Shown here: one piece after another, positions 1-15,398 of the stretch
Numbering within the stretch: the stretch's first letter is position 1
How the letters are laid out: each line of letters opens with the position of its first letter
Assembly (NCBI RefSeq): GCF_024298765.1
Contig: NZ_CP101210.1
DNA: 64,000 nucleotides
Reading direction: 5' to 3' (one strand)
Source of the DNA: Escherichia coli
GTDB taxonomy: Bacteria; Pseudomonadota; Gammaproteobacteria; Enterobacterales; Enterobacteriaceae
Program-made: the position numbers and the translations under genes
Notes under the pieces: generated by a model
What the model was told of the DNA's origin: nothing
Seen by the model: only the letters and a program-made list of their open reading frames with translations
The model's database searches: none

Positions 1-260
1 TCAATTATGAGGCTTTTAATTTAGGTACTGGTCAAGGTTATTCTGTTTTAGAGATTGTAAAAATGTTTGAGATAGTCACTAAAAAGAGTATACCTTTTGC
101 TATTTGTAATAGACGTGAGGGGGATGTTGCTGAGTCATGGGCGTCTGCTGATTTGGCACATGAAAAGCTTTCCTGGAAAGCGGAAAAAAAATTGAAAGAA
201 ATGATCGAAGATGTATGGCGTTGGCAAACAAAAAATCCAAATGGATATAAAAAATAATTT
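1..260 (+). CDS. UDP-sugar 4-epimerase (GalE/Gne-like), 3' partial; gene starts upstream of window
   Basis: C-terminal translation ...AESWASADLAHEKLSWKAEKKLKEMIEDVWRWQTKNPNGYKK closely parallels the C-terminus of the complete epimerase at 12838-13857; stop at 258-260. Confidence 0.7.
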
Positions 261-275
261 TTGGAATTTTGATAT

Positions 276-1292
276 ATGAAAAATGTTGGTTTTATTGTTA
301 CAAAATCAGAAATTGGTGGTGCACAAACATGGGTAAATGAAATATCTAACCTTATTAAAGAGGAATGTAATATATTTCTTATTACATCTGAAGAAGGATG
401 GCTCACACATAAAGATGTCTTTGCTGGAGTTTTTGTCATACCAGGTATTAAAAAATATTTTGACTTCCTTACATTGTTTAAATTGAGAAAAATTTTAAAA
501 GAAAATAATATTTCAACATTAATAGCAAGTTCTGCTAATGCCGGAGTTTATGCTAGGTTAGTTCGATTACTAGTCGACTTTAAATGTATTTATGTTTCGC
601 ATGGATGGTCTTGTTTATATAATGGTGGTCGACTAAAATCAATTTTTTGTATTGTGGAGAAATACCTTTCTTTATTAACTGATGTTATATGGTGTGTTTC
701 CAAAAGTGATGAAAAAAAAGCAATTGAGAAAATTGGTATAAAAGAAACAAAGATAATCACAGTATCGAATTCAGTGCCTCAGATGCCAAGATGTAATAAT
801 AAACCACTCCAGTATAAAGTTCTGTTTGTTGGTAGGTTAACACACCCTAAGCGCCCCGAATTGTTAGCGAATGTAATATCGAAAAAGCCCCAGTATAGCC
901 TCCATGTCGTAGGAGGGGGGGAAAGGTTAGAATCATTGAAGAAACAATTCAGTGAATGTGAAAATATTCATTTTATGGGTGAGGTCAATAATTTTTATAA
1001 CTATCATGAGTATGATTTATTTTCACTGATATCCGATAGTGAAGGTTTGCCTATGTCAGGCCTTGAGGCTCACACAGCTGCAATACCACTCCTTTTAAGT
1101 GATGTGGGCGGATGTTTTGAATTAATTGAGGGTAATGGGGTACTTGTGGAAAATACTGAAGACGACATTGGATATAAATTGGATAAAATATTCGATGACT
1201 ATGAAAATTATCGGGAACAGGCAATTCGTGCCTCCGGAAAATTTGTTATCGAGAACTATGCTTCAGCATATAAAAGCATTATTTTAGGTTGA
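276..1292 (+). CDS. glycosyltransferase, GT4-like (group 1)
   Basis: 338 aa; C-terminal EGLPMSGLEAHTAAIPLL...DVGG resembles the GT4 E-x7-E region; low GC typical of O-antigen genes. Confidence 0.65.
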   Translation: MKNVGFIVTKSEIGGAQTWVNEISNLIKEECNIFLITSEEGWLTHKDVFAGVFVIPGIKKYFDFLTLFKLRKILKENNISTLIASSANAGVYARLVRLLVDFKCIYVSHGWSCLYNGGRLKSIFCIVEKYLSLLTDVIWCVSKSDEKKAIEKIGIKETKIITVSNSVPQMPRCNNKPLQYKVLFVGRLTHPKRPELLANVISKKPQYSLHVVGGGERLESLKKQFSECENIHFMGEVNNFYNYHEYDLFSLISDSEGLPMSGLEAHTAAIPLLLSDVGGCFELIEGNGVLVENTEDDIGYKLDKIFDDYENYREQAIRASGKFVIENYASAYKSIILG

Positions 1293-1318
1293 GTATTTTT
1301 TAGAACAGGAAATGTAAA

Positions 1319-2440
1319 ATGGCTAAAGTCGCTCTCATTACTGGCATAACCGGACAAGACGGTTCTTACCTGGCAGAGTTTCTGCTGGAAAAAGGTTACG
1401 AGGTGCATGGTATTAAGCGTCGTGCATCGTCATTCAACACCGAGCGCGTGGATCACATTTATCAGGATCCGCACACCTGCAACCCGAAATTCCATCTGCA
1501 TTATGGCGACCTGAGTGATACCTCCAACCTGACGCGCATTTTGTGTGAAGTGCAGCCGGATGAAGTGTACAACCTTGGCGCAATGAGTCACGTTGCGGTC
1601 TCTTTTGAGTCACCGGAATATACCGCAGACGTTGATGCGATGGGTACGCTGCGCCTGCTCGAGGCGATCCGCTTCCTCGGTCTGGAAAAGAAAACCCGTT
1701 TCTATCAGGCTTCCACTTCTGAACTGTACGGTCTGGTGCAGGAGATTCCGCAGAAAGAGACCACGCCGTTCTACCCACGCTCTCCGTATGCAGTCGCCAA
1801 ACTGTACGCCTACTGGATCACCGTTAACTACCGCGAATCCTACGGCATGTACGCCTGTAACGGTATTCTCTTTAACCATGAATCCCCGCGCCGCGGCGAA
1901 ACCTTCGTTACCCGCAAAATCACCCGCGCAATCGCCAACATCGCACAGGGGCTGGAGTCGTGCCTGTACCTCGGCAATATGGATTCCCTGCGTGACTGGG
2001 GCCACGCCAAAGACTACGTAAAAATGCAGTGGATGATGCTGCAACAGGAACAGCCGGAAGATTTCGTCATCGCTACCGGCGTTCAGTATTCCGTGCGTCA
2101 GTTCGTGGAAATGGCGGCAGAGCGAGTCGGAATCAAACTGCGTTTTGAAGGCGCAGGTGTAGATGAGAAAGGGATAGTGGTTTCTGTTAATGGTGAGGAT
2201 GCTCCAGCAGTTAAACCTGGAGATGTAATCGTTAAGGTTGACCCGCGTTACTTCCGTCCGGCTGAAGTTGAAACACTGCTCGGCGACCCGACCAAAGCGC
2301 ACGAAAAACTGGGCTGGAAACCGGAAATCACCCTCAGAGAGATGGTGTCTGAAATGGTGGCTAATGACCTCGAAGCGGCGAAAAAACACTCTCTGCTGAA
2401 ATCTCACGGCTACGACGTGGCGATCGCGCTGGAGTCATAA
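1319..2440 (+). CDS. gmd: GDP-mannose 4,6-dehydratase
   Basis: 373 aa; N-terminal Rossmann motif [25 protein letters not shown]; conserved short-chain dehydratase core; high GC. Confidence 0.95.
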
Positions 2441-2442
2441 GC

Positions 2443-3408
2443 ATGAGTAAACAACGCATTTTTATCGCTGGCCATCGTGGGATGGTCGGTTCTGCCATCA
2501 GGCGGCAGCTCAAACAGCGCGGTGATGTGGAACTGGTATTACGCACCCGCGACGAGCTGAACCTGCTGGACAGCCGCGCGGTGCATGATTTCTTTGCCAG
2601 CGAACGCATTGACCAGGTCTATCTGGCGGCGGCGAAAGTGGGCGGCATTGTTGCCAACAACACCTATCCGGCGGATTTCATCTACCAGAACATGATGATT
2701 GAGAGCAACATCATTCACGCCGCGCATCAGAACGACGTGAACAAACTGCTGTTTCTCGGATCGTCCTGTATCTACCCGAAACTGGCAAAACAGCCGATGG
2801 CAGAAAGCGAGTTATTGCAGGGCACGCTGGAGCCGACCAACGAGCCTTACGCCATTGCCAAAATCGCCGGGATCAAACTGTGCGAATCTTACAACCGCCA
2901 GTATGGACGCGATTACCGCTCAGTCATGCCGACCAACCTGTACGGGCCGCACGACAACTTCCACCCGAGTAACTCGCACGTGATCCCTGCATTGCTGCGT
3001 CGCTTCCACGAGGCGACGGCACAGAATGCGCCGGACGTGGTGGTGTGGGGCAGCGGTACACCGATGCGCGAATTTCTGCACGTTGATGATATGGCAGCGG
3101 CGAGCATTCATGTGATGGAGCTGGCGCACGAAGTCTGGCAGGAGAACACCCGGCCGATGCTGTCGCACATTAACGTCGGCACGGGCGTTGACTGCACTAT
3201 CCGTGAGCTGGCGCAAACCATCGCCAAAGTGGTGGGTTACAAAGGTCGGGTGGTTTTTGATGCCAGCAAACCGGATGGTACGCCGCGCAAACTGCTGGAT
3301 GTGACGCGCCTGCATCAGCTTGGCTGGTATCACGAAATCTCACTGGAAGCGGGGCTTGCCAGCACTTACCTGTGGTTCCTTGAGAATCAAGACCGCTTTC
3401 GGGGGTAA
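2443..3408 (+). CDS. fcl: GDP-L-fucose synthase (GDP-4-keto-6-deoxymannose epimerase/reductase)
   Basis: 321 aa; [17 protein letters not shown](P)-binding motif; immediately downstream of gmd. Confidence 0.95.
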
Positions 3409-3911
3409 TGATGTTTTTACGTCAGGAAGACTTTGCCACGGTAGTGCGCTCCACCCCGCTTGTCTCCCTCGACTTTATTGTTGAGAACAGTCGCGGCGAG
3501 TTTCTGCTTGGCAAAAGAACCAACCGCCCGGCGCAGGGTTACTGGTTTGTGCCGGGAGGGCGCGTGCAGAAAGACGAAACGCTGGAAGCCGCATTTGAGC
3601 GGCTGACGCTTGCGGAACTGGGGTTGCGTCTGCCGATAACAGCAGGCCAGTTTTACGGTGTCTGGCAGCACTTTTATGACGATAACTTCTCCGGCTCGGA
3701 TTTCACCACTCACTATGTGGTGCTCGGTTTTCGCATCAGAGTAGCGGAAGAAAAGCTGTTACTGCCGGATGAGCAGCATGACGATTACCGCTGGCTGACG
3801 CCGGACGCGTTGCTCGCCAGTGACAATGTTCACGCTAACAGCCGAGCTTATTTTAATCATGATCCAAGAGCTGTTATTGGTTTAGATAAAAAGGATGTCA
3901 AAAATGTCTGA
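3408..3911 (+). CDS. gmm: GDP-mannose mannosyl hydrolase (Nudix)
   Basis: 167-aa ORF (probable start at second Met, 3411); position after fcl matches the gmd-fcl-gmm order. Confidence 0.85.
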
Positions 3912-5352
3912 TGTACCGTTGATTGCTGTTGTAATGGCTGGTGGTACGGGTAGCCGTCTTTGGCCCCTCTCAAGAGAGCACTATCCGAAGCAATTTCTGC
4001 AATTATCAGGTGAGAATACTTTATTACAGTCAACCTTATTACGACTATCCCCGCTTTCTTGCGAAACTCCATTAGTAATAACAAATGAGCAACATCGCTT
4101 TGTGGTTGCAGAACAATTACGTCAAATTGATCAGTTAAGAGATAATATTATTCTTGAGCCATGTGGAAGAAATACGGCTCCCGCCATAGCTCTTTCAGCA
4201 TTTACAGCTTTGAAGCGTAATGAACAACAGGATCCTATTTTGTTGATTCTCGCAGCTGACCATATTATAAGCAAAGCGGATGTTTTTTGTGACGCTATTC
4301 AAAAATCGAAAACTGTAGCTGAACAGGGGAATATTGTAACCTTTGGGATTATACCTGAATATGCGGAAACAGGTTATGGTTATATAAAAAAAGGAGATCC
4401 TTTTAAAATTTTACCAAATATTACTGATGATAAGTTTTATCATGTCCAACAATTTATTGAAAAACCTAACCATTCGACGGCAGAAGAGTATGTTTCCACA
4501 GGAGAATATCTCTGGAATAGTGGAATGTTTATGTTTAAAGCATCAGTATATTTAGAGGAATTGAAAAAGCACAGGCCTGATATATACGAAATCTGTGAGC
4601 AGACAGCTTCATTATCCTATAACGATCTTGATTTCATACGATTGCCTAAACATATTTTCCAAGATTGTCCGTCGGAATCAATTGATTTTGCGGTTATGGA
4701 AAAAACAAAAAATTGCATTGTTCGTCCAGTAGACATCGGGTGGAGTGATGTAGGCTCTTGGCATTCTTTGTGGGATATTAGTGATAAAACGCAGGATGGA
4801 GATGTCTGTAAAGGTGATATTCTAACTTATAACACTAAAAACAATTATATATATTGTGAATCAGCCCTAGTGGCTGCTGTAGGTGTAGAAGATATAGTTA
4901 TTGTTCAAACAAAAGATGCTATTCTCGTGTCCAAAAAAACTGAGGTTCAGGATGTAAAAAAAATAGTAGAAATGCTTAAGGAACATGAGCGCTCAGAGTA
5001 TATATCGCATCGAGAGGAGTTTCGGCCTTGGGGAAAATTTGATGCGATAGATCAGGGAGAACGATATAAAGTTAAAAAGATAGTTGTGAAACCCGGCGAA
5101 GGACTATCCTTACGAATGCACCATCATCGTTCTGAGCATTGGATTGTTCTTTCCGGCACAGCAAAAGTAACTTTAAACGATAAAACAGTATTGCTTGCTG
5201 CAAATGAATCAATCTACATTCCTCTAGGAGCAACGTATAGTCTTGAAAATCCAGGAATAATCCCTCTGAATCTTATTGAGGTTAGTTCAGGCGATTATTT
5301 AGGTGAGGATGATATTGTACGGCAAAAAGAACGCTACAGAATAGATGACTAA
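3895..5352 (+). CDS. manC: mannose-1-phosphate guanylyltransferase
   Basis: 485-aa ORF; N-terminal [17 protein letters not shown] nucleotidyltransferase motif; C-terminal cupin-like region; exact start uncertain (3895 or 3904). Confidence 0.9.
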
Positions 5353-5355
5353 TAT

Positions 5356-6735
5356 ATGAAAAAATTAACCTGCTTTAAAGCCTATGATATTCGCGGGAAA
5401 TTAGGTGAAGAACTGAATGAAGATATCGCCTGGCGCATTGGTCGCGCCTATGGCGAATTTCTCAAACCGAAAACCATTGTGTTAGGCGGTGATGTCCGCC
5501 TCACCAGCGAAACCTTAAAACTGGCGCTGGCAAAAGGTTTGCAGGATGCGGGCGTCGATGTGCTGGATATTGGTATGTCCGGCACCGAAGAGATCTATTT
5601 CGCCACGTTCCATCTCGGCGTGGATGGCGGCATTGAAGTTACCGCCAGTCATAATCCGATGGATTACAACGGCATGAAACTGGTGCGCGAAGGGGCTCGC
5701 CCGATCAGCGGCGATACCGGACTGCGCGATGTCCAGCGTCTGGCAGAAGCCAACGACTTTCCTCCCGTTGATGAAACCAAACGCGGTCGCTATCAGCAAA
5801 TCAACCTGCGTGACGCTTACGTTGATCACCTGTTCGGTTATATCAGTGTCAAAAACCTTACGCCGCTCAAGCTGGTGATTAACTCCGGGAACGGCGCGGC
5901 GGGTCCGGTGGTGGACGCCATTGAAGCCCGCTTTAAAGCCCTCGGCGCACCGGTGGAATTAATCAAAGTACACAACACGCCGGACGGCAATTTCCCCAAC
6001 GGTATTCCTAACCCGTTGCTGCCGGAATGCCGCGACGACACCCGTCATGCGGTCATCAAACACGGCGCGGATATGGGCATTGCCTTTGATGGCGATTTTG
6101 ACCGCTGTTTCCTGTTTGACGAAAAAGGGCAGTTTATCGAGGGCTACTACATTGTCGGCTTGCTGGCACAAGCGTTCCTCGAAAAAAATCCCGGCGCGAA
6201 GATCATCCACGATCCACGTCTCTCCTGGAACACCGTTGATGTGGTGACTGCCGCAGGCGGCACCCCGGTAATGTCGAAAACCGGACACGCCTTTATTAAA
6301 GAACGGATGCGCAAGGAAGACGCCATCTACGGTGGCGAAATGAGCGCCCACCATTACTTCCGTGATTTTGCTTACTGCGACAGCGGCATGATCCCGTGGC
6401 TGCTGGTCGCCGAACTGGTGTGTCTGAAAGGAAAAACGCTGGGCGAACTGGTGCGCGACCGGATGGCAGCATTTCCGGCAAGCGGTGAGATCAACAGCAA
6501 ACTGGCGGACCCCGTTGAGGCGATTAACCGCGTGGAACAGCATTTTAGCCGTGAGGCGCTGGCGGTGGATCGCACCGATGGCATCAGTATGACCTTTGCC
6601 GACTGGCGCTTTAACCTGCGCTCCTCCAACACCGAACCGGTGGTGCGCCTGAATGTGGAATCGCGCGGTAATATAGCATTAATGAATGAACAGGTTGAAT
6701 TTATTACAAAATTTTTAAACGGTGATGGTTTATGA
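5356..6735 (+). CDS. manB: phosphomannomutase
   Basis: 459 aa; phosphohexomutase active-site region TASHNP; follows manC. Confidence 0.9.
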
Positions 6736-7289
6736 GAATATTAAAAATTATTATAAGTGTATTGTTGTTTATAAAAAAGAAAAGAAAAAAAATACCGGAC
6801 TCAGCAATAATAAACTTAACAAGTCATGTGGATAAACATTCAGTAATTGGAAAGTGTTGTTATATAGGGAAAAATGTATATATAACTAAAAGTATCATTG
6901 GGAATTACACATCTATTGCAAATAATGTCTCAATTGGTCAAGGTGAACATAAGGTTGATGCAGTTAGTACAAGTTCGATGTTCTACGATAATGAATTCGA
7001 AGATTTAACACAAAACGATTGTATTATAGGTAATGATGTGTGGCTCGGTACAGGAGTTACTGTATTACGAGGGGTAAGAATTGGTGATGGTGCTATTATT
7101 GGTGCTAATGCCGTTGTCACAAAAAATATTCCAGATTATTGTATTGCGGTAGGAGTACCTGCGAAAGTAATCAAAAGAAGATTACCAGTAAATGTTACTG
7201 AAAAAATAAAAGAGACTAAATGGTGGAATGATGAATATGAAGTGGCGAAGGATAAAATTATTTGCTTAACAAATGAATTAAAGTTATGA
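6732..7289 (+). CDS. hexapeptide-repeat acetyltransferase (putative O-acetyltransferase)
   Basis: 185 aa; left-handed beta-helix repeats [31 protein letters not shown]; start overlaps manB stop. Confidence 0.75.
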
Positions 7290-8728
7290 ACAAAAAAGAA
7301 ATAATTATCTTGCTTATAGCCAGAATTCTACAGATTCTCATTAGTTTATTCACAATGAGATTGATGACAACGATTTTAAGCAATGAGCAAATGGGGGAGT
7401 ATTATATTTTTTTAGCAATCTATATGTTGGCATCATTGGGTATAATTAATCCAATAGGACAATATGTGAATCGCAACACTTATTTATGGTGGAGAGAGGG
7501 AGTACTAACCCAATATATTGATCGATATATTAATTTTGTTTTGTGTTTTTCGCTTATTTATGTGATTTTGTATGGACTTGGTGAATGTTTGTTTAAAGGA
7601 ATAAATACACCATTTTGGATGTTATTCTGTTATTTATATATAGTATGTTTATCTCTAAACCAATTTCTATTACATACTTTAAATATCTTAAATTTTAAGA
7701 TAGTATTTTCCATTATGACGTTGATGACTTCTGTATTAAGTTTATCAGGGGCATATTTATTTATTGAATATAGCATAGCTAAACAAACTGTTAGTATATA
7801 TTACTGGGTTGCAGGAATCATAATTGGCAATTTTATTTCTTTATGTATATGCGTTGTATATCTGAGATGTAGAAATACGTTCCAAAAATCAATTCCTAAA
7901 TCTATCAATGTAAGCATAAAAGAAGTTTTTAATTTTTGCTGTCCAATTATGATAACAACTTTGTTCATTTGGTTTCAAAGCTCTGGATATCGATTTGCTG
8001 TCGAGCAAATGTTTGGCTTAAAGTTTTTAGGTATACTAGCTGTATGTTTTGCTGTGTCAGGGCAAATAATGTCAGTGATTGAGTCTTTAGTGACACAGAT
8101 ATTTCAACCAACATTATTTAAGCATATGGATAATGTCAAAAATAGAAAGCAACATCTAGATTTTTATATTAATGAAAATATAGCAATTTATGCTAGTGTA
8201 TTATTTTTTTGTACTTTCTTTATGCGCGAAATATTTTTGGTTTTAGTTGACAATAAATATCTTCCTTACTTCTATATAGGTATAATAGCTTTATGGAGTG
8301 AATTTTTTAGGATATCAACCAATACTTTGTCTTTAGTGTTTTTTTGCGAAAAGAAAATGAAGGTGGGAATTTTTCCTTATTTAATTGGCTCATTAAGTCT
8401 GGCTTTTTCGATCGTCTTGTTCAGGTTGTTAAATGTAAATTTGGGTATTTTAATAGCTTTTGCTATTGGGATTGCACAATTGGCCTCCTTTATCGTTTGC
8501 TTAATTACGGTAAAAAAAATCTCTTATTTTAAAATAAATTCCATCTTCTTAATGAAGAGGATAATAATAGTACTACCTTCTGTGTTAATTGCCCATTGCA
8601 TTCCTAAATTTGAAATGATTAATGCTGTCCATTTTATTATCATTTTCGGTGTCGGTTTATTTTACTTAATCTCTTTAGTTACTTCTTTTATGTTTATTAA
8701 ACAACCAGGAGGTGTTTATGGAAGTTAA
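7286..8728 (+). CDS. wzx: O-unit flippase
   Basis: 480 aa, highly hydrophobic multi-span protein, very AT-rich; position in O-antigen cluster. Confidence 0.8.
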   Translation: MNKKEIIILLIARILQILISLFTMRLMTTILSNEQMGEYYIFLAIYMLASLGIINPIGQYVNRNTYLWWREGVLTQYIDRYINFVLCFSLIYVILYGLGECLFKGINTPFWMLFCYLYIVCLSLNQFLLHTLNILNFKIVFSIMTLMTSVLSLSGAYLFIEYSIAKQTVSIYYWVAGIIIGNFISLCICVVYLRCRNTFQKSIPKSINVSIKEVFNFCCPIMITTLFIWFQSSGYRFAVEQMFGLKFLGILAVCFAVSGQIMSVIESLVTQIFQPTLFKHMDNVKNRKQHLDFYINENIAIYASVLFFCTFFMREIFLVLVDNKYLPYFYIGIIALWSEFFRISTNTLSLVFFCEKKMKVGIFPYLIGSLSLAFSIVLFRLLNVNLGILIAFAIGIAQLASFIVCLITVKKISYFKINSIFLMKRIIIVLPSVLIAHCIPKFEMINAVHFIIIFGVGLFYLISLVTSFMFIKQPGGVYGS

Positions 8729-9569
8729 AATTATTGGGGGACTTGGCAATCAGATGTTTCAGTATGCAACTGCATTTGCTATTGCAAAAAGAACTCATCA
8801 AAATTTGACTGTTGATATATCTGATGCAGTAAAATATAAAACTCATCCATTAAGATTAGTTGAATTATCTTGTAGTTCAGAATTTGTAAAAAAAGCATGG
8901 CCATTTGAAAAATACTTATTTTCCGAAAAAATCCCACATTTCATGAAAAAAGAAATGTTCAGAAAGCATTACGTTGAGAAAAGTTTAGAGTATGATCCAG
9001 ATATTGATACTAAAAGTATAAATAAAAAAATCGTCGGTTATTTTCAAACTGAAAAATATTTTAAGGAATTTAGGCATGAGTTGATAAAGGAATTTCAACC
9101 TAAAACTAAGTTTAATAGTTATCAAAATGAATTGCTTAATTTAATTAAAGAAAATGATACTTGTTCATTGCATATTAGAAGAGGTGATTATGTTTCCAGT
9201 AAAATAGCAAATGAAACTCATGGTACATGTAGTGAAAAATATTTTGAACGTGCCATTGATTATTTGATGAATAAAGGTGTTATTAATAACAAAACCCTTC
9301 TCTTCATTTTTTCTGATGATATAAAGTGGTGCAGGGAAAATATATTTTTTAATAATCAAATATGTTTTGTTCAAGGTGATGCTTATCATGTTGAATTAGA
9401 TATGTTGCTTATGAGTAAATGTAAAAATAATATAATTTCAAATAGTTCTTTCAGTTGGTGGGCTGCTTGGTTAAATGAAAATAAAAATAAAACAGTAATT
9501 GCTCCGAGTAAATGGTTTAAGAAAGATATTAAACATGATATTATTCCCGAATCGTGGGTAAAATTATGA
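8712..9569 (+). CDS. alpha-1,2-fucosyltransferase (GT11 family)
   Basis: 285 aa; N-terminal IIGGLGNQMFQYATAFAIAKR and HIRRGDY motif characteristic of GT11 fucosyltransferases. Confidence 0.8.
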   Translation: MFMEVKIIGGLGNQMFQYATAFAIAKRTHQNLTVDISDAVKYKTHPLRLVELSCSSEFVKKAWPFEKYLFSEKIPHFMKKEMFRKHYVEKSLEYDPDIDTKSINKKIVGYFQTEKYFKEFRHELIKEFQPKTKFNSYQNELLNLIKENDTCSLHIRRGDYVSSKIANETHGTCSEKYFERAIDYLMNKGVINNKTLLFIFSDDIKWCRENIFFNNQICFVQGDAYHVELDMLLMSKCKNNIISNSSFSWWAAWLNENKNKTVIAPSKWFKKDIKHDIIPESWVKL

Positions 9570-10432
9570 TGGAAGATACAAAAGAATTAATAACAGTAAT
9601 AATGCCTGTTTATAATGCGGAAAAATACATATATGAATCTATAAAAAGTATTTTGGTGCAGTCATATTCTAATTTTGAGTTCATCATTATTAATGATGGC
9701 TCAAAAGATTCTTCTGGAAAAATTATTGAAAACTTTCTCGATGATACGAGGATACGATATATAAATCGTGAAAATAAAGGTTTGGTCTTCACTCTGAATG
9801 AAGCTATTTCGTTATCAAGAGGAAATTATATTGCTCGAATGGATGCTGATGATATTTCACATCCCCTACGATTAGAAAAGCAACTAAATTTTCTACTAGA
9901 AAATCCAGATATAGCCGTAGTTGGGTGTTCTTCTTTTATTATTGACCAAAATTCTAAGGTTATAAATACGCGAAAACCACCTTTGACACCTTTAGTAAAT
10001 AAAGCATTGCTATTTTTTGGCCCAACATTAACTCATCCATCAGTGATGTTTAATAAAATACTACTTGGAGATCAGCTTTACTACAGTGATAAATATCTTC
10101 ATGTTGAAGATTATGACTTGTGGTTGAGGTTAATTAATCAATACAAAATAGCTAATATCAAAGATGTTCTTTTTTACTATCGAATTAATGAGTCAGGTGT
10201 TTCACAGACTAATTTATTTGAACAAAAAATTAATGCTGCTAAAGCATATAGTGAAATTAAATATGATGGTAAGTATAAAGACTTACTGGAAAAGTTAGAA
10301 GTCATACACCTGAGACATGAAATGGAGAAAAGTAAGGTCTTTCAGGCCGTATTATATATATTATTAAAGTATGAACATGATTCATTATTATTTTTAAAAT
10401 TAGGATATATATTACGATGGTTAATAAAATAA
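9554..10432 (+). CDS. glycosyltransferase family 2
   Basis: 292 aa; ITVIMPVYNAEKYI...IIINDGSKD and ARMDADD (DxD) motifs. Confidence 0.8.
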   Translation: MGKIMMEDTKELITVIMPVYNAEKYIYESIKSILVQSYSNFEFIIINDGSKDSSGKIIENFLDDTRIRYINRENKGLVFTLNEAISLSRGNYIARMDADDISHPLRLEKQLNFLLENPDIAVVGCSSFIIDQNSKVINTRKPPLTPLVNKALLFFGPTLTHPSVMFNKILLGDQLYYSDKYLHVEDYDLWLRLINQYKIANIKDVLFYYRINESGVSQTNLFEQKINAAKAYSEIKYDGKYKDLLEKLEVIHLRHEMEKSKVFQAVLYILLKYEHDSLLFLKLGYILRWLIK

Positions 10433-11316
10433 AAATAGCACTAATAAGTACAGAAAAAGCTAATCTTCCTGAAATTGAAGCCTATAAGGAGTATTTTTCG
10501 GAGCCATTTGATGTCTCTGTTGTTAATAAAAATGATGATTTAAGTTGTTATGATGTTTTATGGTACTTTATGGGGTTTAAAGGTAATAAAATAAACTCTA
10601 AACAGTTCTTGATTCATGAGTTTTCCTCAATTTCAGTACCACCATTTCCAAAAATAAAAAACGTTATCAAGAAATTTATTTTGCCTAAACCTAATTTGAG
10701 GGTTTTTTTAAATAAATCAGTGCAACAACAATTCGATTTTAATGATAGAGTTCCTTTTTGTTACCGAGATATGGGCGTCAATTATAAACCAGTAGTTGAA
10801 AGAAATAATAAAAAATATGATATATTATATGTGGGGGCAATTACTGGTAGAAAACTAGATGATGCATTAAATTTGATTTTGTCATATAAATTAGATTGTA
10901 AAATCGCAATTCTTGGTAAAGTGCCAGAAAAGTTCAAAGAAAAATATAAAAATACTGATGTTATATTTCTTGGGCAAGTTCCTTATAATCGGGTAGCCAC
11001 CATTATTGCAGAATCTAACTTGTGTTTAAATTGGATTCCGAATATTTATCCATATAACATGCAGACATCAACAAAATTCTTAGAGTATCTGGCACAAAAT
11101 AAACAAATAATATCGAATAGCTACCCTTGGGTTGACTCTTATTGTCAACAGCATAATATTGACTATATTAATGTCAATGATTCCAATTCTATTCGACAAG
11201 CATTGAACTCAGTCATAATCCAAAAATCAACACATATCCCCCCAAGTTGGCGAGAGGTTATTATGAATAGCGGGATAGAGAATCACATTAAATCATATTT
11301 TGAGGTAACAAAATGA
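10417..11316 (+). CDS. putative glycosyltransferase
   Basis: 299 aa, low-GC ORF between GT2 gene and wzy, overlapping stop/start junctions; no strong motif identified. Confidence 0.45.
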   Translation: MVNKIKIALISTEKANLPEIEAYKEYFSEPFDVSVVNKNDDLSCYDVLWYFMGFKGNKINSKQFLIHEFSSISVPPFPKIKNVIKKFILPKPNLRVFLNKSVQQQFDFNDRVPFCYRDMGVNYKPVVERNNKKYDILYVGAITGRKLDDALNLILSYKLDCKIAILGKVPEKFKEKYKNTDVIFLGQVPYNRVATIIAESNLCLNWIPNIYPYNMQTSTKFLEYLAQNKQIISNSYPWVDSYCQQHNIDYINVNDSNSIRQALNSVIIQKSTHIPPSWREVIMNSGIENHIKSYFEVTK

Positions 11317-12356
11317 TTTCTTACGGAGTGCTATTTCTCTTCTCTTATATCAATGCTGTACTTCAGAAGAGAGTAACCGTAACGTTACTATTTTTTATAA
11401 TGATAATTGTTTCTTTCTTTAAATATAATATTGGATTTGATTGGGGGAATTATCATGAAATTTACCTTCAGCAAGGAGATGGCTTTTTTTTTAATGAACC
11501 CCTATTTTCTCTCTTAATTATTCTTTCCAATAAGGTTGCATTAGAATATAAATATTTTATATCAATGTGCTCATTAATTACACTGATTGTTTATTATTCT
11601 GGTATGCGGTGTTTTGCAAGAGATATAAAAGAGTTAGCTTTAGCATTAACTTATTTTGTTGTCTCTTATTGCTACTTTGAACACTTTAATATTATTCGAC
11701 AAGCTTTAGCAATCGCTTTATTCTTTTATAGTTGGAAATATATTATTGAGACTAACTTTATAATGTATAGCCTCTTTATTTTTTTTGCATCTATGATTCA
11801 TGCGGCGGCGGTTGTATTGCTCCCATTTTACTTTTTCCTTAGAATTGATAATTTTAAACCTGTATATTATGGTATAGTGGTCTTATTTATTATTATTGTT
11901 GTTAGATTCGATATTAACAGCATCCTTTTAAGTTCACTTAATTTATTTAAAAATTTCGATTTTGTAGCCAGGTATTTAGCAAATTCAACAGATTTGGCTG
12001 ACTTTGCATCAAAAAAATCTGATCTTGGATTAAGTAAGATATACCCAGCAATTATATTTGTTTTCTGTTGTTTTTGGGGAGGGATTAGGTTAGAGTCTCG
12101 AAGAGACTATGTTTTTTTTAATGCTGGCTTTATTGCAATAACTTTACTGCTCTTAAGCTATCAGGTTGATATTTTGTTTAGATTTTTCTCTTTTTTTGAG
12201 ACTTCATTTGTCTTGTTGTACTGCATTATTTTTTCTGGTTTTAATAAAAAAAGTAAAATTATACTGCATATGGTTAATTTAATTGTATATACGGTAATGA
12301 CATTTAACATGTTATCAGTAATGGGCTTGATTCCTTATGAATCATACATTTTCTAA
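11313..12356 (+). CDS. wzy: O-antigen polymerase
   Basis: 347 aa, very hydrophobic multi-span protein with extreme AT bias; no recognisable soluble domain. Confidence 0.65.
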   Translation: MISYGVLFLFSYINAVLQKRVTVTLLFFIMIIVSFFKYNIGFDWGNYHEIYLQQGDGFFFNEPLFSLLIILSNKVALEYKYFISMCSLITLIVYYSGMRCFARDIKELALALTYFVVSYCYFEHFNIIRQALAIALFFYSWKYIIETNFIMYSLFIFFASMIHAAAVVLLPFYFFLRIDNFKPVYYGIVVLFIIIVVRFDINSILLSSLNLFKNFDFVARYLANSTDLADFASKKSDLGLSKIYPAIIFVFCCFWGGIRLESRRDYVFFNAGFIAITLLLLSYQVDILFRFFSFFETSFVLLYCIIFSGFNKKSKIILHMVNLIVYTVMTFNMLSVMGLIPYESYIF

Positions 12357-12730
12357 TAAGCTTCCCTCAGTTGTTTGTTGTATAGTAATATTTTAATATC
12401 ATTGCAGTGTGTAATTATTGTCAATAAGCTAATTTCTGTTATTTGCATGATTAATTCAGTTTGCAATGCTTGATGTAAAAAGATAAAGTGCACCCGTTTA
12501 CACAATGTTTATTTTGGCATGTCAAGTATAAGTTCTAAATAATACGTTTGTAATGTTTAGCATGTAAACATAATAGTTAAATAATATTAAACATGCAACA
12601 TGCCATTTGTTATTCTAATAAAACATATGTGTTGTGTGAATTATTTAATGTGGAAAGTGGTTGCGTATTATAAATTGTTCATATTGACGTTTAAGTCTTT
12701 TATAACTCCATGCTTGCATGTTAAAAACAT

Positions 12731-12752
12731 TTCGCTATATATTCGCTATATA
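12731..12752. repeat. perfect tandem direct repeat 2 x 11 bp (ttcgctatata) within AT-rich intergenic region
   Basis: ttcgctatatattcgctatata read directly; lies in the 480-bp gene-free region 12357-12837. Confidence 0.9.
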
Positions 12753-12837
12753 TTATGGTAGGTGGTTTTTATCTAGGCAGATTTGTCTATTTAACTCTAA
12801 ATCTAAATCGCTTAAGAAAGTATGAGTAGGAGTATTT

Positions 12838-13857
12838 ATGGCTATTCTCGTTACAGGTGGTGCTGGTTATATTGCATCACATACTATACTGAGTTTGATA
12901 GAGCAGGGTAATGAAGTAATTATTATTGATAATTTATCAAATTCATATTATGATTCGTTATTGAAAATAAAAGAGATTACTGGATGTGATTGTCTTTTTT
13001 ATAAAGGAGATATCCTTGACAAAAAACTCTTGCTAAAAATATTTGATGAAAATAATATCACTGCTGTGATGCATTTTGCTGGTGCAAAGTCTGTAAGTGA
13101 ATCTGTTATCAGACCTTTGCAATACTATCGAAATAATGTCTCTGGCACTTTTTCTTTAGTTGAGGCAATGGAGGAGTCTGGTGTAGAAAATTTAATATTT
13201 AGCTCTTCAGCAACTGTCTATGGTGAGCCAAAGATTATTCCTGTGAATGAAAGTTGTGCTATAGGTGGTACTACAAATCCGTATGGAACGTCCAAGTTAT
13301 TTGTAGAGAACTTTTTGCGGGATTATTCTAAGGCATCCCCTAATTTTAAAACTATAGTATTAAGATATTTTAACCCTATCGGTGCTCACTCATCTGGAAA
13401 AATAGGTGAAGATCCTAACGGAATTCCGAATAACTTGATGCCCTTTATATGCCAGGTTGCTATCGGTAAACAAAAAACGCTCAAGATCTACGGAAATGAT
13501 TATCCTACTAAAGATGGTACTGGGATTCGCGATTATATTCATGTTATGGATCTTGCTGAAGGTCATGTTGCTGCATTAAATAATATTAATCAAGGAGCTA
13601 ATTATAGAGTTTACAACCTTGGAACAGGAATTGGATACTCTGTGTTGGAATTATTAGAAGCATTTCAGAAAGTTACAACTCGGAGAGTTCCCTATGTTTT
13701 TACTAAAAGGCGTTCAGGTGATATCGCTGAATGTTGGTCTGATCCTACCAAAGCGTATGAAGAATTAGGATGGAAAGCAAGGCGAGGGTTAGAAGATATG
13801 ATTCGTGATGCATGGAATTGGCAGCAAAAAAATCCAAATGGATTTAAGAAAGTTTAA
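12838..13857 (+). CDS. gne: UDP-GlcNAc/UDP-Glc 4-epimerase
   Basis: 339 aa; N-terminal ILVTGGAGYIASHT NAD-binding motif; C-terminus parallels the partial epimerase at window start. Confidence 0.9.
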   Translation: MAILVTGGAGYIASHTILSLIEQGNEVIIIDNLSNSYYDSLLKIKEITGCDCLFYKGDILDKKLLLKIFDENNITAVMHFAGAKSVSESVIRPLQYYRNNVSGTFSLVEAMEESGVENLIFSSSATVYGEPKIIPVNESCAIGGTTNPYGTSKLFVENFLRDYSKASPNFKTIVLRYFNPIGAHSSGKIGEDPNGIPNNLMPFICQVAIGKQKTLKIYGNDYPTKDGTGIRDYIHVMDLAEGHVAALNNINQGANYRVYNLGTGIGYSVLELLEAFQKVTTRRVPYVFTKRRSGDIAECWSDPTKAYEELGWKARRGLEDMIRDAWNWQQKNPNGFKKV

Positions 13858-13963
13858 TAAAAATGAAACGATATATTAAGTGTTAGCTTGTTTAATTAAT
13901 TTAAAGTTAATATTATTTACATTAATATGTAATGAAAGTGATATTCTATGACAGGAGTAAACA

Positions 13964-15370
13964 ATGTCAAAGCAACAGATCGGCGTAGTCGGTATGGCAG
14001 TGATGGGGCGCAACCTTGCGCTCAACATCGAAAGCCGTGGTTATACCGTCTCTATTTTCAACCGTTCCCGTGAAAAGACGGAAGAAGTGATTGCCGAAAA
14101 TCCAGGCAAGAAACTGGTTCCTTACTATACGGTGAAAGAGTTTGTTGAATCTCTGGAAACGCCTCGTCGCATCCTGTTAATGGTGAAAGCAGGTGCAGGC
14201 ACGGATGCTGCTATTGATTCCCTCAAGCCATACCTCGATAAAGGTGACATCATTATTGATGGTGGTAATACCTTCTTCCAGGATACCATTCGTCGTAACC
14301 GTGAGCTTTCTGCCGAAGGTTTTAACTTCATTGGTACCGGTGTCTCCGGTGGTGAAGAAGGCGCGCTGAAAGGTCCTTCCATCATGCCTGGTGGGCAGAA
14401 AGAAGCCTATGAACTGGTTGCACCGATCCTGACCAAAATCGCCGCCGTTGCTGAAGATGGCGAACCGTGCGTTACCTATATTGCTGCCGATGGCGCGGGT
14501 CACTATGTGAAGATGGTTCACAACGGTATTGAATACGGTGATATGCAACTGATTGCTGAAGCCTATTCTCTCCTGAAAGGCGGCCTGAATCTTTCTAACG
14601 AAGAACTGGCACAGACCTTTACCGAGTGGAATAACGGTGAACTGAGCAGCTACCTGATCGACATCACCAAAGACATCTTCACTAAAAAAGATGAAGACGG
14701 TAACTACCTGGTTGATGTGATCCTGGATGAAGCGGCTAACAAAGGTACCGGTAAATGGACCAGCCAGAGCGCGCTGGATCTCGGAGAACCGCTGTCGCTG
14801 ATTACCGAGTCTGTGTTTGCACGTTATATCTCTTCTCTGAAAGATCAGCGTGTTGCAGCGTCTAAAGTTCTCTCTGGTCCGCAAGCGCAGCCTGCTGGCG
14901 ACAAGGCTGAGTTCATCGAAAAAGTTCGTCGTGCTCTGTATCTGGGCAAAATCGTTTCTTACGCCCAAGGCTTCTCTCAGCTGCGTGCTGCGTCTGAAGA
15001 GTACAACTGGGATCTGAACTACGGCGAAATCGCGAAGATTTTCCGTGCTGGCTGCATCATCCGTGCGCAGTTCCTGCAGAAAATCACCGATGCTTATGCC
15101 GAAAATCCGCAGATCGCTAACCTGCTGCTGGCTCCGTACTTCAAGCAAATTGCCGATGACTACCAGCAGGCGCTGCGTGATGTCGTTGCTTATGCAGTAC
15201 AGAACGGTATCCCGGTTCCGACCTTCGCGGCTGCGGTTGCCTATTATGACAGCTACCGCGCCGCAGTTCTGCCTGCAAACCTGATCCAGGCACAGCGTGA
15301 CTATTTCGGTGCGCATACTTATAAGCGCATTGATAAAGAAGGTGTGTTCCATACTGAATGGCTGGATTAA
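13964..15370 (+). CDS. gnd: 6-phosphogluconate dehydrogenase, decarboxylating
   Basis: 468 aa; N-terminal [17 protein letters not shown]; high GC core-gene composition. Confidence 0.97.
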
Positions 15371-15398
15371 TCTGATTTAACCAACAATAAAATTGAGG

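Follow-up and report, generated by a model that had tools for sequence, protein, structure and literature searches.

A non-coding spacer upstream of gne2 in the Escherichia coli O128 O-antigen cluster: a plausible neutral module junction with an apparently strain-private 11-bp duplication

In a gene cluster whose members overlap or nearly abut, a long stretch of DNA without a gene raises the question of whether that stretch regulates the gene that follows it, encodes something that annotation has missed, or simply marks a place where the cluster was joined. Such a stretch lies between wzy and gne2 in the window analyzed here (the whole 64,000-nucleotide piece of E. coli DNA), which holds the E. 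coli O128 O-antigen gene cluster, as judged from open reading frame (ORF) lists and from the RefSeq annotation of the homologous locus of strain 90-9281. In this cluster, the first listed gene encodes a glycosyltransferase; gmd, fcl, gmm, manC, and manB follow, and then an acetyltransferase gene, wzx, three glycosyltransferase genes, and wzy, the last gene of the tightly packed serotype-specific part, whose stop codon ends at position 12356. The final gene before gnd is gne2, the cluster's second GalE/Gne-type epimerase gene. The genes ugd and wzz come after gnd, followed by the his operon on the opposite strand. The features on which the analysis turns are as follows.

276-1292: glycosyltransferase gene, first in the listed O128 cluster order
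11313-12356, + strand: wzy, encoding the O128 O-antigen polymerase, 347 amino acids (ORF list; RefSeq "O128 family O-antigen polymerase" on homologous loci)
12357-12837, + strand: non-coding spacer, 481 bp (470 bp in all other O128 sequences), with no annotated feature and no Pfam or Rfam match
12828-12832, + strand: Shine-Dalgarno sequence AGGAG, 5 nt upstream of the gne2 ATG and kept in Escherichia albertii
12838-13857, + strand: gne2, encoding a GalE/Gne-type 4-epimerase, 339 amino acids (ORF list; RefSeq "UDP-glucose 4-epimerase GalE")
13964-15370: gnd, downstream of gne2

All 12 genes upstream of the spacer overlap or lie at most 26 bp apart, and the 481-bp gap is therefore a real exception. 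The initial annotation had described a gene-free block of 480 bp between wzy and gne, within a cluster whose genes are otherwise packed or overlapping; both points hold, with the size amended to 481 bp on the basis of the wzy stop at 12356 and the ORF start at 12838. No feature is annotated in the homologue of the block in 22 RefSeq genomes. The block had also been singled out as AT rich. Its GC content is indeed 0.28 (72% A+T), but this value is not distinctive, as the flanking wzy and glycosyltransferase genes range from 0.25 to 0.31; AT-richness is a property of the whole low-GC part of the cluster and no local anomaly of the spacer. The cluster itself is a strong GC mosaic, in which genes of the GDP-fucose/mannose pathway reach 0.52 to 0.58 and the serotype-specific genes 0.25 to 0.31 (positions 1-7000 vs 7000-13900); low-GC stretches are also found within window positions 1-7000, at 4001-5000 and around 6501-7000. 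On the - strand, gnd and gmd contain long antisense ORFs of 391 amino acids (14177-15352) and 265 amino acids (1610-2407), respectively.

Searches for recognizable content in the spacer were negative. An Rfam scan (E ≤ 10) gave no match within it, with the best E values (2.6 to 9.5) all falling outside the block, and Pfam analysis of the six-frame spacer peptides returned 0 families at E ≤ 10. When the six frames were concatenated into a pseudo-protein and compared by HMMER to 1.84 billion representative proteins (E ≤ 0.001), the only sequence retrieved was the locus's own orphan ORF. No intrinsic terminator was predicted in the spacer; the sole terminator-like site, at 12094-12108, lies within wzy. 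The ops element GGCGGTAGCGTG (core GGCGGTAG(CGTG)) is absent from 12357-12837 when up to 2 mismatches are allowed, and the six ops-like matches found in the window at this tolerance, against 3.8 expected by chance, are all located outside the spacer. For annotation purposes, the O128 gap is real non-coding DNA with no missed gene.

The spacer is also confined to a single serotype. Among 5,426 complete E. coli genomes, spacer and gne2 are restricted to O128: blastn detected no spacer copies beyond 22 O128 loci, all matches with a named serotype are O128, and five loci that were fetched carry the O128 wzy. No match was obtained in plasmids or phages. Exact-pattern scans of species-representative genomes yielded only one 20-nt chance match, in a Porphyromonadaceae metagenome-assembled genome (MAG), and all spacer matches in metagenomes proved to be O128 loci. 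As far as these searches reach, the spacer does not appear to be a mobile element.

In all 22 matching genomes, the block match spans 470 bp, not 481. Alignment with five O128 genomes attributed the difference to one copy of an 11-mer and revealed, in addition, a single private SNP at 12616. The 11-mer occurs in the window as follows.

12731-12752, + strand: perfect 2 x 11-bp tandem of TTCGCTATATA (units 12731-12741 and 12742-12752; 2.2 copies)

The perfect tandem of an 11-mer that had been noted at this position was thus verified as two head-to-tail copies of TTCGCTATATA. Its TRF score of 48 is the highest in the 64-kb window (the next ones are 46 and 44), and the TT after the second copy corresponds to the first two bases of the unit, a 2-nt microhomology. 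A single 11-mer is also found in three further assembly loci (L009-L011) and in three metagenome contigs (L024-L026). Two copies were observed in the window only; all 22 complete genomes, as well as the 3 assembly and 3 metagenome contigs, have one, and no copy-number variation was seen among these other strains. Because every other locus examined holds one copy, the duplication would be a strain-private allele, apparently recent and not a feature of the locus. The comparison identifies it as a mutational event, an insertion of 11 bp relative to all other copies of the locus examined. The head-to-tail arrangement and the 2-nt microhomology give it the form that replication slippage would be expected to leave, and it may also be an assembly artefact. 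A phase-variable (contingency) repeat was considered and rejected, since copy number is constant (one) in all other strains examined. Together with the private SNP at 12616, the duplication offers a strain marker for typing and nothing more.

The duplication does alter one reading frame. The single-copy allele encodes a hydrophobic-looking ORF of 72 amino acids, running from 12600 to about 12825 and ending 12 nt before the gne2 start (about 14244-14462 in O128 locus L001). In the window, the additional 11 bp frameshift this ORF to 53 amino acids, a product of the two-copy allele with no database record. Some gene callers predict the 72-aa product, which only the single-copy allele can encode, in roughly 230 public contigs. 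Among its variants on record are Pro6 replaced by Gln or Ser, Thr30Met, and Gly51Val; in the window, residue 6 is Leu.

The most informative comparison for the spacer as a whole comes from E. albertii, in which many genomes contain a wzy-gne2 locus homologous to that of O128. In the syntenic E. albertii cluster, whose proteins match E. albertii entries exactly and whose wzy product is 86% identical at the amino acid level, the wzy-gne2 gap measures 293 to 294 bp. From the synteny and from the colitose-type genes downstream of gnd, we took this locus to be the EAOg8 (EAO8) cluster; EAOg8 is related to E. coli O128 and O55 (PMC6927306). Alignment of the two gaps divides the O128 spacer into three parts.

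12357-12476, + strand: 5' part, common to E. albertii EAOg8, about 73% identity
12477-12652, + strand: central segment of 176 bp that O128 has and E. albertii lacks
12653-12837, + strand: 3' part, about 72% identical to its E. albertii counterpart, with several small indels

The central segment is flanked by an imperfect direct repeat, ATGTaaAAAG / ATGTggAAAG (8/10), and the 176-bp difference would be explained equally well by a loss between these repeats in E. albertii and by a gain in O128. Several elements that might otherwise attract attention, namely, the near-palindrome, four of the seven GCATG motifs, and both + strand promoter-like matches, are contained in these 176 bp.

Outside the central segment, the spacer shows rapid divergence. 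Between O128 and E. albertii, nucleotide identity is 88.6% for wzy (79% at third codon positions), 91.3% for the upstream glycosyltransferase gene (86%), and 93.9% for gne2 (86.5%), whereas the aligned parts of the gap are 72 to 73% identical. Since this value falls below that of third positions in all three genes (79 to 86.5%), the spacer changes no more slowly than sites that are largely synonymous. Of a few short islands that are conserved, the best, 12429-12454 in the 5' part, is identical at 25 of 26 positions and, by our estimate, is not significant once multiple windows are allowed for. Within O128, segregating sites amount to 2.3% in the spacer, 1.4% in wzy, and 0.4% in gne2, making the spacer the most polymorphic part of the cluster among those compared upstream of gnd. 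This assessment of constraint draws on two deep lineages (O128 and E. albertii), a depth of sampling at which weak constraint on short elements is possible.

Several further observations on diversity were made at the same loci. Over the 5' 374 bp of gnd (13964-14337), 4.5% of sites segregate among six O128 sequences, and 16 of the 17 codons that vary do so synonymously; with 0.4% in gne2 and no segregating site in the 106 bp between gne2 and gnd, diversity rises sharply where gnd begins. Among six EAOg8 gap sequences, there is one SNP, and a T6/T7 run after the wzy stop is the only length difference (9708-9745 in locus L018 and 1774-1812 in locus L012). A fragment of a Y1 transposase (IS200-like) is located downstream in E. 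albertii locus L018, at 15185-15382.

Repeats and secondary structure within the spacer were gauged against shuffled sequence. The most prominent inverted repeat is given below.

12553-12571, no strand assigned: near-palindrome ATGTTTA-GCATG-TAAACAT, with core gtttagcatgtaaac at 12555-12569

Near-palindromes had been listed among the block's peculiarities, and gtttagcatgtaaac is present as described; it nevertheless carries no signal, as this best inverted repeat of the spacer was equalled or beaten in 40 of 60 dinucleotide shuffles. The near-palindromes are therefore at chance level and without demonstrable significance. The best direct repeat was likewise equalled or beaten in 12 of 60 shuffles. 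Folding did not exceed that of shuffles for the whole spacer (z scores of +0.33 and +0.01) or for the central 176-bp segment (z scores of -1.07 as DNA and +0.43 as RNA).

One short motif does stand out from its surroundings. GCATG/CATGC occurs 7 times in the spacer, against about 1.2 expected, and 4 times in 5 kb of neighboring low-GC coding DNA; no other 481-bp stretch of the window reaches this count. The CATG positions are 12446, 12518, 12561, 12592, 12599, 12709, and 12717 (within 12446-12721), and the motif often takes the form TT(G/A)GCATGT, overlapping -35-like hexamers. The extended form GCATGT is present 5 times, against 0.48 expected. Taken as a single k-mer, the GCATG enrichment was matched in 0 of 2000 shuffles, which becomes a family-wise p of about 0.03 when all 5-mers are considered (86/3000); for GCATGT among 6-mers, the family-wise p is 0.06. 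Only 1 of the 7 GCATG sites is conserved in E. albertii. Internal degenerate repeats were examined as a source of the enrichment and set aside, since shuffles yield self-alignments, direct and inverted, that are as good as the best ones of the spacer. Viewed in this way, the enrichment appears weak and would not amount to evidence of function.

The wider distribution of gne2 places the spacer in the history of the cluster. The gne2 product is 56% identical to the cluster's first epimerase, whose gene adjoins galF just outside the window start (882-1901 in locus L001). Its closest relatives elsewhere (67 to 75% amino acid identity) are also encoded by terminal genes adjoining gnd, in otherwise unrelated clusters. 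Comparison with these other clusters carrying a related gne, which the initial annotation had envisaged, gave upstream gaps of 26, 30, and 243 bp, none with similarity to the spacer. A search with wzy further retrieved a Citrobacter werkmanii cluster whose wzy product is 56% identical at the amino acid level and which is syntenic with O128 from gmm through wzy; it holds gmm, manC, manB, an acetyltransferase gene, wzx, an alpha-1,2-fucosyltransferase gene, two glycosyltransferase genes, and wzy. In this cluster, wzy is followed by 151 bp and then by gnd, with neither spacer nor gne2 (8001-10605 in locus L015 and 4720-7324 in locus L016). Since C. werkmanii is without both, block and gne2 behave as an add-on module, one that E. 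coli O128 has in common with E. albertii EAOg8. The suggestion that the block is a scar from cluster assembly is supported by this pattern, in which the spacer forms the left junction of the module, by the like position of the closest gne2 relatives next to gnd, and further by the divergence of the spacer, at least equal to that of third codon positions, and its tolerance of a 176-bp indel. C. werkmanii also has a different epimerase-family gene between ugd and wzz, on the opposite strand. Many NCBI entries in the gne2 protein cluster are labeled partial (229 to 302 amino acids), and draft O128 assemblies therefore seem often to break inside or next to gne2.

Taken together, these observations show the spacer to be non-coding, indel-prone, and without detected constraint, at the junction between the serotype-specific core and the accessory gne2, and we consider it somewhat probable that it is neutral DNA, crossed by read-through transcription, with gne2 translated independently. 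Under this reading, the spacer would already have been present when the O128 version of the cluster in E. coli and the EAOg8 version in E. albertii diverged. From then on, it would have drifted without detectable constraint, accumulating substitutions, small indels, and one 176-bp indel bounded by a direct repeat, and in the source strain alone it would have gained 11 bp by replication slippage. RNA polymerase modified by RfaH, coming from a JUMPstart/ops leader upstream of the cluster and outside the window, would presumably read through the spacer, in which no predicted intrinsic terminator would stop it. With respect to Rho loading sites, a transcript with more G than C is a poor Rho substrate; the spacer transcript is richer in G than in C (79 vs 55 bases), and it would likewise be poorly suited to Rho. 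Translation of gne2 would then begin independently, from its own strong and conserved Shine-Dalgarno sequence. Three observations sit less easily with neutrality: a long gap has been kept in two species, not deleted, which could hint at function; the island at 12429-12454 is almost identical between them; and the GCATG motif is in excess at a family-wise p of about 0.03.

The foremost alternative is that transcription of gne2 starts at a sigma-70 promoter within the spacer, possibly accompanied by regulator sites, and is independent of the main O-antigen promoter. The spacer is long, AT rich, and untranslated, and the gene immediately after it has a Shine-Dalgarno sequence of its own; one relative's terminal gne also follows an AT-rich gap (that of 243 bp). 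O-antigen operons are bound by H-NS and depend on RfaH, and cryptic promoters are common in AT-rich, H-NS-bound DNA acquired horizontally (PMC9765446). Candidate sites were defined as -35 and -10 hexamers at 16- to 18-bp spacing and were weighed by whether they occur above chance and/or are conserved in homologues. Two such sites lie on the + strand of the spacer, TTGGCA-18-AATAAT at 12514-12543 and TTAGCA-17-AATAAT at 12557-12585, and a third candidate, TTGCAT-18-TATATT at 12714-12743, recognized by eye, begins just before the duplicated 11-mer and runs into it. The density of consensus-like sites nevertheless equals expectation, with 10 found against 8.3 +/- 2.7 in shuffles. Both + strand sites fall inside the 176 bp missing from E. 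albertii, whose gap holds no + strand promoter-like site, and the -35 hexamer of the candidate at 12714 changes from TTGCAT in O128 to TTATAT in E. albertii. The closest gne2 relatives need only 26 to 30 bp upstream, and the divergence of the spacer exceeds that of third codon positions overall. The proposal that the block is an internal promoter or regulatory region for gne, made in the initial annotation, thus gained no positive support, and we regard an internal promoter as possible but doubtful. If shown experimentally, such a promoter would offer a modest case of differential expression inside an operon that depends on RfaH.

Resemblances to regulator sites add little to this case. A sequence that we take to be PhoP-box-like, cGTTTAcacaaTGTTTA at 12494-12510, and TTAGCATGTAAA, which presumably resembles the SlyA site TTAGCAAGCTAA, are both partial matches in the segment that E. 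albertii dispenses with; the 11-mer, in the 3' part common to E. albertii, bears what we assume to be a partial likeness to the H-NS nucleation motif. As partial matches in DNA of 72% A+T, none of the three was relied on.

A second alternative holds that a gene once stood between wzy and gne2, perhaps one for a glycosyltransferase, and has decayed into the spacer. A GT4-family glycosyltransferase gene is found immediately upstream in the nearest gne2 relatives, and the composition of the spacer equals that of the neighboring coding DNA. However, blastn and blastx searches of the spacer against the genes upstream of gne2 relatives showed no similarity (E > 4 by blastx against glycosyltransferases), and the Pfam and six-frame homology searches described above, at E ≤ 10 and E ≤ 0.001, respectively, returned nothing except the spacer's own ORF. 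We consider a gene remnant improbable.

More improbable again is the reading in which the central 176 bp are a small inserted mobile or regulatory element, with the direct repeat as its target-site duplication and the GCATG(T) sites as a protein-binding array. Both junctions do carry an imperfect 10-bp direct repeat, and the segment contains four GCATG motifs, from an enrichment with a family-wise p of about 0.03, as well as three collinear short inverted repeats. Against this, the genome, plasmid, and phage searches uncovered no other copy, the metagenome matches were all O128 loci, and the species-representative genomes gave the single 20-nt chance match; terminal inverted repeats are lacking, and the fold energy is no better than that of shuffles. 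A deletion between these repeats on the E. albertii side would explain the pattern equally well, and of the GCATG sites outside the segment, most are not conserved (1 of 3 is).

An elaboration of this idea, in which the central 176 bp are an O128-specific regulatory insertion, a promoter or binding-site array that uncouples the second epimerase from the operon, and the 11-bp duplication is a regulatory variant, seems to us very unlikely. Were it true, the GCATG(T) motifs that overlap the -35-like hexamers TTGGCA, TTAGCA, and TTGCAT would point to a putative DNA-binding protein, and the 11-bp duplication would alter the length of the gne2 leader or promoter. Finally, a real small hydrophobic protein is the least credible reading of all, and the 72-aa ORF is almost certainly spurious: although it is intact in the public contigs and predicted by gene callers, it is an orphan forming one cluster among the 1.84 billion representatives, is unannotated by RefSeq/PGAP in all 22 genomes, has its start in the segment that E. 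albertii is without (where the frame is also broken), shows by eye roughly 39% protein identity to E. albertii over the approximately 28 overlapping codons against about 72% DNA identity, has mostly amino acid-altering SNPs by our reading of their positions, and is frameshifted in the source strain with no evident consequence.

The 11-bp duplication resembles slipped-strand tandem duplications in being a perfect head-to-tail copy of a short unit with 2-nt microhomology, located about 85 bp upstream of a start codon. Contingency (phase-variable) repeats, by contrast, are multi-copy, hypervariable tracts, whereas the O128 spacer has two copies only of an 11-bp unit. The spacer shares with cryptic promoters in H-NS-bound DNA its 72% A+T and several consensus-like hexamer pairs on both strands, but it differs in that its site density is not above that of shuffles and its sites are not conserved in E. 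albertii. Like the JUMPstart/ops leader of RfaH-dependent operons, it is long, untranslated, and followed by polysaccharide gene content; that leader lies 5' of the operon, however, and the O128 spacer is operon-internal and without ops. Its direct homologue is the wzy-gne spacer of EAOg8, which is syntenic, has the same Shine-Dalgarno sequence, and can be aligned at both ends, although it measures 293 to 294 bp instead of 470 to 481 bp, has only one of the seven GCATG motifs, and lacks both the central 176 bp and the 11-bp duplication. Remnants of insertion sequences or mobile elements often mark O-antigen module junctions, and in this respect the O128 spacer is unlike such junctions, as none was detected in it. 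O-antigen clusters between galF and gnd are low-GC and horizontally assembled (reviewed in PMC7685785). In its position at a module boundary, its low GC content, its variable length, and the fact that no function is assigned to it, the spacer resembles the module junctions of enterobacterial O-antigen clusters; sequence of this kind is known, the O128 example is an ordinary one, and it matters little.
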